This document shows, piece after piece, positions 33,101 to 35,124 of a DNA stretch of 64,000 nucleotides. Source of the stretch: a virus (Duplodnaviria > Heunggongvirae > Uroviricota > Caudoviricetes); the IMG/VR virus record IMGVR_UViG_2713896898_000005; one strand, written 5' to 3'. The position numbers were made by a program, and so were the translations under genes. The notes under the pieces were generated by a model. The model made no database searches. It had not been told where the DNA came from and was given only the letters and a program-made list of their open reading frames with translations. How positions within the stretch are numbered: position 1 is the first letter of the stretch; every line of letters starts with the position of its first letter.

Positions 33101-33454
33101 GAAGGGCGTTCTGAGTTTGTATGTGGTGATTTTTCAGCGGTGATTGAAGCTGCCGGAGAAGGAGATGTCATCTTTTGCGATCCTCCGTATGAACCGCTCC
33201 CCAATACAGAGGGGTTCACAAACTATTCCGGTCATGACTTTAAGTTTGAAGAGCAAAAACGCCTGGTATCTCTGCTAATGGATGCTCATCGCCGAGGTGC
33301 AAAGATCCTCATTACTAATAGTGGTGCGCCAAACATCAGGGAGCTTTACCAAGACAGTGGCTTCAGAGTGGAACCTCTTTTTGCCAGACGTTCTGTGTCT
33401 TGTAAGGGGAACACTCGTGGTGTAGCTCATGACGTTATTGCTATATTGCTCTAA
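30167..33454 (+). CDS. dmt: Dmt bifunctional DNA methyltransferase (Dcm-like C5 domain plus Dam-like N6 domain), intein-containing precursor
   Basis: C5-MTase motifs SVCSGIE (I), [12 protein letters not shown] (IV, interrupted), VIVWENVPG (VI); Dam motifs EPFVGGGAV and DPPYEP; 1095 aa = about 754 aa + 341-aa insertion. Confidence 0.9.
30398..31420 (+). mobile_element. Intein with LAGLIDADG homing-endonuclease domain, inside dmt
   Basis: Starts with Cys (CFTAGHMVL), ends VVHN followed by Cys +1; block B TNDH; LAGLIDADG-like [11 protein letters not shown] and [10 protein letters not shown]; excision restores [12 protein letters not shown]. Confidence 0.85.
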
Positions 33455-33461
33455 TAAATTT
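33445..33461 (+). promoter_or_regulatory. C1 operator (perfect consensus) overlapping the dmt stop codon
   Basis: ATTGCTCTAATAAATTT 17/17, followed by TAATAT -10-like hexamer. Confidence 0.75.
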
Positions 33462-33642
33462 ATTAGTGTAATATGGTTTCAATGAATCGTGATTTATAGA
33501 GCGATTTAGCTGTTAGCCGCGACAGGCGCGGCGGCAAGTATGGCGGGGTAGTGACTCCTTCCCCCTCATGACGCCGAGTTGCCAGGTTGACCATACGCCT
33601 AAGTGGCAATACCGAAATGCGTAACGAGCTTACATCCTGTTT

Positions 33643-33667
33643 GCCCATCTTCGGGTGGGCGTTTTTT
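33643..33667 (+). terminator. Rho-independent terminator with UUCG-type loop
   Basis: GCCCATC-TTCG-GGTGGGC followed by TTTTTT. Confidence 0.6.
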
Positions 33668-33848
33668 CAGGGTTTTCGTCATGGTTAGCGACTTTGCGGC
33701 GGTTTAGAAACTGACCATTAAAGTAAATGCAAACGATGATCTGATGATGGCTGCGGCCTAAGAAGCCAGACGCCACGGGGTATGAGTCGTCCCCCGTCAA
33801 AAAATCGACCGCAGAGTGTCCCCGTCTGTGTATTAGGGAACGGGGAGG

Positions 33849-33927
33849 CACAACAGGTAAGGGCGCTGGTGTGATTAACCAGATGAACGAGAAGGGGCCA
33901 TCTGTTGGTCAGCGTCCTTTCCTGTTG
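33849..33927 (+). repeat. tRNA-like structured repeat unit A
   Basis: CACAACAGGTAAGGGCG pairs with CGTCCTTTCCTGTTG around a roughly 50-nt core; leader and trailer boxes shared with units B-D. Confidence 0.4.
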
Positions 33928-34132
33928 CGTCTTCTTTTCAGCGTAACAGCGGTGCTTAACAGCACTTTGGGTACAGTTCCACGAATTTACGGGTATATCC
34001 CGTCATGCTGAAAGCGCTAATCACGCTGGAAGCCAGGGTTATGCATCCCCTGTTACCGAATTGCAGCCAGGGCGCGGTGCGCCGAAAAGCATACGGAGGT
34101 GGAAGCCCTCGCCGGAGACGTACCCGGCAAGT

Positions 34133-34208
34133 GATGGTGTAGCTCAGCGGTTAGAGCAGTTGGCTGTTAACTAACTGGTCGGTGGTTCGAATCCACCCAC
34201 CATCGCCA
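34133..34208 (+). tRNA. tRNA-Asn (anticodon GTT)
   Basis: 76-nt cloverleaf: acceptor GATGGTG/CACCATC, anticodon loop CTGTTAA, T-arm GGTGG-TTCGAAT-CCACC, 3' GCCA. Confidence 0.85.
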
Positions 34209-34210
34209 AT

Positions 34211-34343
34211 GCCGGTTTAGCTCAGTGGGAGAGCACGAGAGCCAAAGCATCGTTTCTACTTCGGTAGACAGCCTTGCTGGTCAAATGACAACGATTCGAT
34301 GTTAGGCCAGAGGTCAGCGGTTCGAATCCGTTAACCGGCACCA
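34211..34343 (+). ncRNA. 133-nt tRNA-like RNA gene (tRNA ends with a structured internal insertion)
   Basis: Perfect acceptor stem GCCGGTT/AACCGGC with ACCA 3' end, D-arm GCTC..GAGC and T-arm; interior replaced by about 57 extra nt including a UUCG-capped hairpin; no canonical anticodon arm. Confidence 0.45.
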
Positions 34344-34344
34344 G

Positions 34345-34431
34345 CACAACAGGTAAGGGTATTTTGCGACGTCGGAGATCGCCGAGCTTGGCAGAGGGTT
34401 CGAATCCCTCCGAAGTACCCTTACCGTTGTG
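34345..34431 (+). repeat. tRNA-like structured repeat unit B
   Basis: 16-bp imperfect outer stem CACAACAGGTAAGGGTA / TACCCTTACCGTTGTG around a T-arm-like hairpin GAGGG-TTCGAAT-CCCTC. Confidence 0.4.
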
Positions 34432-34557
34432 ATGAATGCGCAGGCTGATGCGCGAAAGACATTGCAGCTATTGCGGAAAAGAGCTGTCCGGCGGGGCAAT
34501 TAAACGCCCGTGAGAGTCTGAAATAACCGCAAGCCGGAGATCAGCACCGGTCATCAC

Positions 34558-34646
34558 AACACAACAGGTAAGAGCATTTGTAGAGTTCGACTCTCTACCG
34601 TGGGCTTTTTCCCGCGATGCGAGACGTGAATGCTCTTTCCGTTGTG
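34558..34646 (+). repeat. tRNA-like structured repeat unit C
   Basis: Outer stem ACAACAGGTAAGAGCATT / AATGCTCTTTCCGTTGTG around the T-arm-like hairpin GTAGAG-TTCGACT-CTCTAC. Confidence 0.4.
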
Positions 34647-34799
34647 GTGAATGCGCGTTGCTGGCGCGCAAGTCCGCCCTATGGCAACGAGGCGGCGTAG
34701 TAAATATCGATGCCTCAGTCATCAAGCGCACTGACCGGCCTTATGGGCTATGAAAAAAAGAGGCGCAGTCGGAGATCAGCACCGACCACCACAATCATT

Positions 34800-34886
34800 G
34801 GAGAGTAGGGAGTATGGCGCTCAAGCGGTCTTGAAAACCGTCCCATTGCGCAAGCGATGATGGTTCGATTCCATTACTCTCCACCA
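34800..34886 (+). tRNA. Type II tRNA, probably tRNA-Ser (anticodon TGA), with atypical D-arm
   Basis: Acceptor GGAGAGT/ACTCTCC plus ACCA; anticodon arm GCGGT-CTTGAAA-ACCGT matches E. coli tRNA-Ser(UGA); long variable arm; T-arm GATGG-TTCGATT-CCATT. Confidence 0.5.
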
Positions 34887-34896
34887 GCGCAACGTT

Positions 34897-34990
34897 AAGA
34901 GTATTTGGCTAATTAAGCGAATGCCGGAAGCAGAACCGGATCACCAAATGCGTACAGGCGTCATCGCCGCCCAGCCAGCCAAGTGCTCTT
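34897..34990 (+). repeat. tRNA-like structured repeat unit D
   Basis: Outer stem AAGAGTATTTGGCT / AGCCAAGTGCTCTT followed by the same conserved trailer box as units B and C. Confidence 0.35.
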
Positions 34991-35107
34991 ACCATTGCGG
35001 TGAATTCGGCTAAGCGCACGCGGAACAGTTAAAACAATCCTCCTTGATGATTAAACATTCCGGCGTTAATTGTTAACTGGTTAACGTCACCGGGAGGCAC
35101 CCGGCAC

Positions 35108-35124
35108 CGCAATCTAATAAATAT
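35108..35124 (+). promoter_or_regulatory. C1 operator-like site upstream of tciA
   Basis: CGCAATCTAATAAATAT keeps the TCTAATAAAT core. Confidence 0.4.

Follow-up and report, generated by a model that had tools for sequence, protein, structure and literature searches.

A conserved tRNA-like RNA of phage tRNA arrays with a predicted four-way junction in place of its anticodon arm

The tRNA arrays of phages may contain stable RNAs that are not tRNAs, as exemplified by the species 1 and species 2 RNAs of phage T4 (rnaC and rnaD), which are processed together with the tRNAs of their array, and of which rnaC carries a T-arm-like GGGUUCGAAUCCC hairpin near its 3' end. In the engineered tRNA scaffold of Ponchon and Dardel, a cargo RNA reportedly takes the place of the anticodon stem-loop, and the cell is said to process and stabilise the product as a tRNA. 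The tRNA-like domain of tmRNA has an acceptor stem and a T arm, and its anticodon side runs into a long irregular helix with further structure beyond it. YrlA and other bacterial Y RNAs are non-coding RNAs that mimic tRNA with D- and T-arm-like elements, and some of them are substrates for RNase P and for CCA addition, while phages encode some (PMC4201824). In YrlA a Ro-binding stem joins the 5' and 3' ends and the "acceptor" is a closed hairpin, so that the topology is permuted, and the YrlA genes lie next to rsr.

Here we describe a 133-nt tRNA-like gene of a P1-like phage-plasmid, which resembles all of these systems in part. Like the T4 RNAs it encodes a non-decoding structured RNA within a co-oriented phage tRNA cluster, with the exception of its prophage copies, which lie in a pL leader; unlike it, the T4 RNAs have neither a full cloverleaf body nor a four-way junction, and they show no similarity to it in sequence or by model, our family covariance model R1 matching only true tRNAs in the T4 locus. 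With tmRNA it shares a tRNA-like acceptor stem and T arm, but it lacks a G3-U70 pair, a tag reading frame and pseudoknots, and its D arm is intact. In contrast to YrlA, its two ends form a normal acceptor stem. Its design is identical to that of the engineered tRNA scaffold, but the scaffold is a laboratory construct, whereas the element is a natural conserved family with one specific cargo. By analogy, the element would work like the engineered scaffold, and in kind it would belong with the stable RNAs of phage tRNA clusters. Literature searches found no description of this tRNA-like RNA.

Locus and tRNA body of the gene

The window, by which we mean the whole 64,000-nt stretch of DNA that was analysed, is a P1-like phage-plasmid. 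Rfam finds in it the C4 antisense RNA of P1 immunity together with its a1/b1 targets (11254-11306 and 11375-11460, + strand; 70 and 55.5 bits), and these sequence matches confirm a P1-type immI region. The region around the tRNA-like gene corresponds with 91-96% identity to the dmt-trn-tci-ban region of P7, P1 and D6. The gene for tRNA-Asn(GUU) ends at 34208 and is followed by a 2-nt spacer, AT, and then by the tRNA-like gene. The features of the locus and of the tRNA body are as follows.

33445-33475, + strand: P1-type Pban promoter and C1 operator, 5' of the RNA-gene cluster, near-identical to the annotated Pban/Oban of P1.
34211-34343, + strand: the whole tRNA-like gene, 133 nt, scoring 159 bits with covariance model R1.
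34211-34217, + strand: 5' strand of the acceptor stem, GCCGGUU, which pairs with 34333-34339; double-sided changes at 7/7 pairs among 16 homologues.
34220-34234, + strand: D arm, GCUC-AGUGGGA-GAGC; U8, A14, G15 and G18-G19 conserved among homologues.
34236-34310, + strand: module replacing anticodon-arm positions 27-43, 75 nt where 17 are expected, as defined by alignment with tRNA-Thr(UGU) of P1, P7, D6 and Cyrano.
34311-34332, + strand: variable loop AGGUC and T arm AGCGG-UUCGAAU-CCGUU, the T stem having one G-U pair.
34333-34343, + strand: 3' strand of the acceptor stem, AACCGGC, discriminator A and encoded CCA.

Since the Pban promoter and the C1 operator have been kept upstream, the element is likely to be co-expressed with the neighbouring tRNAs after de-repression of Pban. 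Between Pban and the tRNA genes there is a strong terminator-like hairpin with a T-run (33636-33670, + strand), within the region annotated as "dicF-like" in P1, and transcription of the tRNA cluster and the element would therefore require read-through or antitermination. Further downstream, tRNA-Ser(UGA) (34800-34886, + strand) is called by ARAGORN and missed by the Rfam tRNA model, giving only a sub-threshold tRNA-Sec match of 37.7 bits; the same oddity is noted in the D6 record.

The acceptor stem (GCCGGTT/AACCGGC) is a perfect 7-bp helix with a C-G pair at position 3-70, and U8 and A9 are present between it and the D arm. Three of the five T-stem pairs covary, and G53, T54, Psi55, C56, A58 and C61 are conserved among homologues, as are generally the nucleotides that build the tRNA L-shape. 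The encoded CCA is missing from the N4-like, L114 and prophage copies. Compared with a canonical elongator tRNA (RF00005), the element thus retains the acceptor stem, the discriminator, the CCA and both the D and T arms with their conserved tertiary nucleotides, and what it lacks is the 5-bp anticodon stem with its 7-nt loop (U33, anticodon and purine 37), in place of which there are 75 nt.

The origin of this body can be read from the gene that occupies the same slot elsewhere. In P1, P7 and D6 a 76-nt tRNA-Thr(UGU) lies 2 nt after tRNA-Asn, and in the SSU5-like phage Cyrano, too, tRNA-Asn is paired with an ordinary tRNA-Thr(UGU) in the slot. Outside the D loop (AGUUGGUA in Cyrano versus AGUGGGA), the body of the element is the same as that of the Cyrano tRNA-Thr base for base, the remaining differences being confined to positions 27-43 and two bases of the variable loop, and the alignment shows the bodies of the P1, P7 and D6 tRNAs to be essentially as in the element. 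Because its body matches the tRNA-Thr(UGU) of the same slot, the element is, as judged from sequence, a tRNA-Thr(UGU) gene in which the anticodon arm has been swapped. The phage tRNA-Thr(UGU) and the element share the slot, the acceptor stem, the D arm, the T arm, the CCA and the C1-controlled early operon. They differ in that the element has a 75-nt junction module for arm 27-43, that it cannot decode ACA and that tRNA callers reject it.

That the element is unable to decode codons follows from the fact that no anticodon loop is present in it and that none can be restored by excising parts of the module. None of the loops of the module is conserved in sequence or in length, and there is therefore no cryptic anticodon either. 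The discriminators vary between lineages (A, U, C or G), as do the acceptor stems, and G3-U70 occurs in none of them, so that a shared aminoacylation identity across the lineages is unlikely from their sequences.

Annotation pipelines label the gene "tRNA-OTHER", as does NCBI's PGAP for a 97.7%-identical copy, or miss it. ARAGORN calls neither a tRNA nor a tmRNA on the element, and its score with the Rfam tRNA model RF00005, 13.5 bits, falls short of the cut-off of 29. Apart from this weak tRNA match, Rfam 15, searched at gathering thresholds and at E <= 10 with the window, a 2.5-kb region and the element alone, contains no family that matches the element, and its ribozyme and riboswitch models give no match there at E <= 10. 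The YrlA model (RF02553) reaches 21.4 bits against a cut-off of 69, with a match that runs from the tRNA-Asn T arm into the D arm of the element, and no gene for Rsr (Ro60) or a TROVE-domain protein is found among the annotated neighbours in P1, P7, SSU5-like plasmids and prophages. As for tmRNA, the tRNA-Ala-like G3-U70 pair, the tag reading frame and the pseudoknots are all absent from the element, and only weak, unrelated tmRNA matches occur, outside the element, in Rfam at E <= 10.

The sequence-only reading from which this analysis started had delimited the 133-nt gene with its intact tRNA ends 2 nt after tRNA-Asn exactly, had estimated about 75 nt for the 17-nt anticodon arm and had named a tRNA-Thr at this position in P1, and in all three respects it was right. 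It had left open whether the anticodon region was replaced or expanded, and whether the product was a tRNA-like non-coding RNA, a tRNA with a small insertion or a pseudogene. Of these options replacement is correct, and the tRNA-like non-coding RNA is the one borne out by the evidence. The small, spliceable insertion falls, since the ends of the insert do not allow a 5-bp stem with a 7-nt loop to be restored, and the pseudogene is contradicted by the conservation, with compensatory changes, in at least six phage backgrounds.

Fold and covariation of the 75-nt module

The module is built, with high confidence from comparative modelling, as a stem of two helices (P1 and P2) capped by a four-way junction from which three short hairpins (P3, P4 and P5) emerge. 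Its parts are as follows.

34236-34243, + strand: module base, with C27, the purine-rich loop GAGA and the 5' strand of P1, GCC.
34246-34252, + strand: 5' strand of P2, AGCAUCG, which pairs with CGAUGUU at 34297-34303.
34253-34254, + strand: junction strand J2/3, UU.
34255-34268, + strand: hairpin P3, UCUAC-UUCG-GUAGA, with a stem that is invariant in 16 sequences.
34269-34279, + strand: hairpin P4, CAGC-CUU-GCUG, with compensatory versions of the stem (CGCC/GGCG, CCC/GGG).
34280-34289, + strand: hairpin P5, GUC-AAAU-GAC, with the stem GGC/GCC in homologue L266.
34290-34296, + strand: junction strand J5/2, AACGAUU, nearly invariant.

The 5' strand of P1 pairs with GGC at 34305-34307, all three pairs covary, and CAG at 34308-34310 closes the base of the module. 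The GAGA loop at the base varies among homologues and is replaced by full Watson-Crick pairing in L110. In P2 one pair is seen as CG, GC, UA and GU, and two pairs switch between wobble and Watson-Crick forms. The loop of P3 is UUCG, UCCG, UUAG or GUAA depending on the lineage, and a fixed stem with a changing loop suggests that P3 is a structural hairpin. The loop of P4, of 3-4 nt, is different in almost all lineages, and that of P5 is found as AAAU, AAU, AAAC, AUA and AAA. J5/2 has only the rare variants AACGAUC, AACGACU and AACAAUU, and it is conserved also in those homologues that were retrieved with patterns not containing it.

The same fold emerges in several ways. When RNAalifold is applied to a MAFFT alignment of 12 sequences, it independently predicts an intact cloverleaf body and P1-P5, with P1, a small internal loop, a P2 of 6-7 bp and a four-way junction with connecting strands of 2 nt and 7 nt. 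In this alignment 99.5% of the cells are paired, and double changes occur at 12 pairs, as compared with 6.9 +/- 1.2 in shuffles. In the covariance-model alignment of 16 sequences, which is fitted to the model and therefore biases the covariation figures towards the modelled structure, 99.1% of the cells are paired and double changes occur at 18 pairs, as compared with 10.7 +/- 1.6 in shuffles and at most 8 in slid controls. Minimum-free-energy folding of the module alone gives the same four-way junction in four divergent variants. Folding had been proposed in the sequence-only reading as a check, and RNAalifold and minimum-free-energy folding agree on the four-way junction of the module. The UUCG-capped hairpin (TCTAC-TTCG-GTAGA) pointed out there is real and is P3. 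The CTGG...CCAG helix around a 24-nt loop, which had also been proposed, is contradicted: CTGG lies in P4/P5, CCAG lies at the base of the module, and L110 has no CCAG.

Several other readings of the module were considered and discarded. An alternative helix, AUCGUU/AACGAU, in place of P2 is disrupted without compensation in the N4-like phage Jgk1 and in L117, whereas P2 covaries. A mini-ORF within the module (ATG ACA ACG ATT CGA TGT TAG) has lost both start and stop in Jgk1. Mimicry of the sarcin-ricin loop by CGAGAG is at odds with the variation of this segment (CGAGCG, CAAGAG, CAAAAG, AAGGGG). Antisense pairing of the module core to E. coli 16S, 23S and 5S rRNA does not exceed that of shuffles, and neither conserved internal loops nor pseudoknot candidates are seen in the module.

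Homologues and the pattern of constraint

We found 16 distinct homologues, distributed over P1-like and SSU5-like phage-plasmids, N4-like phages, large phage contigs, other contigs and lambdoid prophages. Three independent E. albertii plasmid assemblies and four IMG/VR contigs share the element letter for letter, and this rules out that the extra nucleotides are an assembly artefact, which the sequence-only reading had named as a possible refutation. Copies with 97.7% identity occur in SSU5-like plasmids of E. coli and copies with 92-93% identity in SSU5-like plasmids of Salmonella. The phage Jgk1 has an 89% copy in a slot where its relatives have an ordinary tRNA. Further copies were found by pattern scans of viral and metagenome contigs and then checked with the covariance model; they lie in the N4-like contig L115, in contigs of 135, 171, 259 and 342 kb, in a 43-kb contig and in lambdoid prophage contigs. 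With R1 the members of the family score 98-160 bits and ordinary tRNAs at most 58 bits, and a homologue truncated by the end of its contig scores 60.6 bits. A loose pattern scan of viral contigs gave only chance matches among the matches listed, and a 19-mer scan of genome contigs gave only chance matches in unrelated organisms. The "tRNA-OTHER" genes of phages PBM-3 and KP8 are tRNAs of ordinary length and lie outside the family, and Yersinia phages related to the lambdoid prophage contigs do not have the element.

In every case the element is co-oriented with a tRNA array or an early operon, and no protein gene co-occurs with it across the lineages. In the lambdoid prophage contigs (L243, at 5323-5452 on the - strand; L242, L244 and L252) it is solitary, with no tRNA array, and is preceded by a P63C-domain gene, a terminator and a pL-like operator region. 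It is there part of the pL leader, after boxA/boxB-like sequences and 22 nt before the Shine-Dalgarno sequence of an N-like antiterminator gene.

As the Asn-X-Ser cassette is common to P1-like and SSU5-like plasmids, part of the spread is plain cassette transfer. The tRNA frame of the Jgk1 copy (L004, 2997-3130), when compared with L106, L107 and L108, is apparently a mosaic, its outer acceptor pairs and T loop looking like those of the resident Gamaleyavirus tRNA, its inner acceptor pairs and D arm like those of the P1/SSU5-type element. Such a mosaic hints at spread of the module by recombination within conserved tRNA segments.

The distribution of differences along the gene tells which part is held constant. 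To take one pair, the window and L110 are identical at 31/55 positions of the tRNA frame, at 9/24 of the module base and at 2/8 of two hairpin loops, and at 45/45 of the module core. More generally, the core is identical at 43-45 of its 45 positions between lineages in which the frame is only 55-75% identical, an apparent invariance that is inflated by the retrieval of homologues with patterns derived from the core. The homologues that were found via the 3' half of the core, however, retain its 5' half, and vice versa, and since each half is kept where the other half was used for the search, the constraint rests on the junction and not on any of the loops.

The element has company among other RNAs with tRNA-like parts. 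In the window, 34352-34425 (+ strand) forms a long stem (GGUAAGGGUA.../...UACCCUUACC) around a perfect T-arm hairpin, GAGGG-UUCGAAU-CCCUC, with a minimum-free-energy z-score of -4.1; the unit is also present in P1 and D6, is called by no tool, and when folded looks like a tRNA-like minihelix RNA. Four units on the + strand (~33848-33945, ~34346-34440, ~34560-34660 and ~34887-35111) are framed by CACAACAGGUAAG(G/A)G ... CUUACCGUUGUG(A/G)UGAAU and a GCGC hairpin. Three of the four were folded, each giving a long stable hairpin (z from -3.7 to -4.3); the last of the four overlaps an Rfam match to STnc100 (34996-35111), pieces of the units recur in Stx and lambdoid phages, and the units may be processing modules of the ban-operon leader. 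In the 259-kb phage contig L116, a tRNA-like unit (1779-2001, + strand) has its anticodon arm replaced by ~150 nt, which contain a second, permuted set of T arm, hairpin and D arm in YrlA-like order, and it lies just upstream of that contig's copy of the family described here. At 2004-2083 of L116 and at ~2205-2285 and ~2585-2712 of Jgk1, RNAs with an acceptor-stem and T-arm minihelix and other inserted domains are found between true tRNAs. The combination of a tRNA frame with a cargo seems to recur in the tRNA arrays of phages.

Possible roles of the RNA

We propose that the element encodes a functional, non-decoding, tRNA-shaped RNA, the junction of which binds a partner in trans early on, and that its most plausible role is that of a tRNA-shaped decoy of, or adaptor for, a tRNA-directed enzyme. 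To this proposal as a whole we give about even weight, and in its functional part our confidence is low. The RNA would share the transcript of the C1-controlled early operon with the tRNAs beside it, and would be excised and stabilised by RNase P and the 3'-end machinery owing to its likeness to tRNA. The conserved junction, placed at the tip of the long arm, would be the working surface, and would bind a protein or an RNA in trans early after induction or infection; the RNA could then act as decoy or adaptor for a tRNA-directed enzyme, for instance an anti-phage tRNA nuclease. A function of this kind is preferred because phage tRNA genes, and tRNA-Thr(UGU) in particular, counter tRNA-cleaving defence nucleases such as P2-OLD (PMC12445682). 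Against a decoy speaks that the module resembles no known nuclease target. The tRNA frame could also serve processing alone, in which case the part of the proposal that concerns a tRNA-directed enzyme would be wrong. Since the same arrays hold other RNAs consisting of frame and cargo, and since the T4 species 1 and 2 RNAs are similarly placed, the analogy suggests a general use of the tRNA frame as a socket for the expression of structured RNAs. A more far-reaching version, which we regard as rather improbable, is that tRNA body and junction "warhead" make up a trans-acting phage RNA that neutralises a tRNA-directed immune enzyme of the host or of a rival element, in other words an RNA-only anti-defence factor that passes between unrelated phages through tRNA-gene recombination.

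Consider instead that the element acts only in cis, its tRNA shape recruiting RNase P and 3' processing and its module forming a stable end-cap for the flanking RNAs. The location in the pL leader of lambdoid prophages, so close to the ribosome binding site of the N-like gene, would agree with this, as lambda uses RNase III processing in its pL leader, and so would the location in the window, within a long, structured ban-operon leader among other hairpin modules. For such a purpose, however, an ordinary tRNA, as in P1, would suffice, and the conservation of junction strands and hairpin stems across unrelated flanks and different RNA polymerases would be left unexplained; we consider punctuation in cis unlikely. 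A trans role could also be of a much more specific kind, with the element as a decoy or inhibitor of Toprim nucleases of the P2-OLD/PARIS type, which cut the anticodon stem, and with its evolutionary origin in the phage tRNA-Thr(UGU) that normally replaces the cleaved host tRNA. P2-OLD is lethal mainly because it removes the anticodon arm of host tRNA-Thr(UGU), and the effect is rescued by phage tRNA-Thr(UGU) (PMC12445682). In the P1-like and SSU5-like elements it is exactly this tRNA that has been replaced and exactly the arm cut by OLD that has been changed, and the stem CCUGC/GCAGG of the P1 and Cyrano tRNA-Thr retains both CNG motifs. But the element itself has neither the paired CNG motif nor the A37 that P2-OLD needs, which makes the specific link to OLD weak; the lone CAG at its 3' base lies one position off and is missing in L110 and L115, the frame is not that of tRNA-Thr in N4-like phages and prophages, and the phage tRNA-Thr is reported not to act by competitive inhibition (PMC12445682). 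Taken together, these points make a dedicated OLD decoy decidedly unlikely.

The compact multi-helix junction, with near-invariant junction nucleotides and freely varying hairpin loops, could in principle also be that of a small RNA of a new type, either a self-cleaving ribozyme or a ligand-binding aptamer, set in a tRNA frame. Such a pattern is typical of small ribozymes and aptamers, and motifs of this kind are frequent in phage tRNA regions, but the failure of all Rfam ribozyme and riboswitch models at E <= 10, the lack of conserved internal loops and pseudoknot candidates, and the absence of an expression platform make it highly improbable. Two further explanations are essentially excluded. 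A decaying tRNA-Thr pseudogene, or a neutral insertion hitch-hiking in a mobile tRNA cassette, would account for the rejection of the element by ARAGORN and by the Rfam tRNA model and for the shared Asn-X-Ser cassette; it is strongly disfavoured by compensatory changes in all tRNA stems and in P1, P2, P4 and P5, by a core that is conserved where the frames are ~56% identical, and by the presence of the element, with unrelated flanks, in N4-like phages, in large contigs (up to 342 kb) and in lambdoid prophages. The insertion falls in the anticodon region, which is also where bacterial group I tRNA introns are located, and a spliced product could be a working tRNA. A group I intron would, however, have at least 200 nt, a P1-P9 core and exons that restore the anticodon arm; the insert has 75 nt and matches no intron model or family, its ends (CGAGA... 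and ...GCCAG) form no anticodon stem, no excision gives a 7-nt loop with U33, and no candidate anticodon is conserved, the candidate loops varying in length and sequence among homologues. Splicing is the least credible of all the explanations considered.

Phage tRNA arrays are now seen mainly as stores of spares against tRNA-cleaving defence systems. The same arrays also hold non-decoding tRNA-shaped RNAs, more strictly conserved than the tRNAs that surround them, and the element described here ranges over temperate phage-plasmids, lytic N4-like phages, large contigs (up to 342 kb) and lambdoid prophages. Small (133 nt), well defined and amenable to genetic work, it is a candidate for a new RNA function early in infection, for which the plain tRNA-Thr(UGU) of P1, in the same slot, provides a natural allelic control. 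It may also illuminate the 50-year-old question of the role that the T4 species 1 and 2 RNAs play in tRNA clusters. If it is true that the element acts in trans as an anti-defence RNA, it would represent a previously undescribed class and a natural counterpart of the engineered tRNA scaffold.
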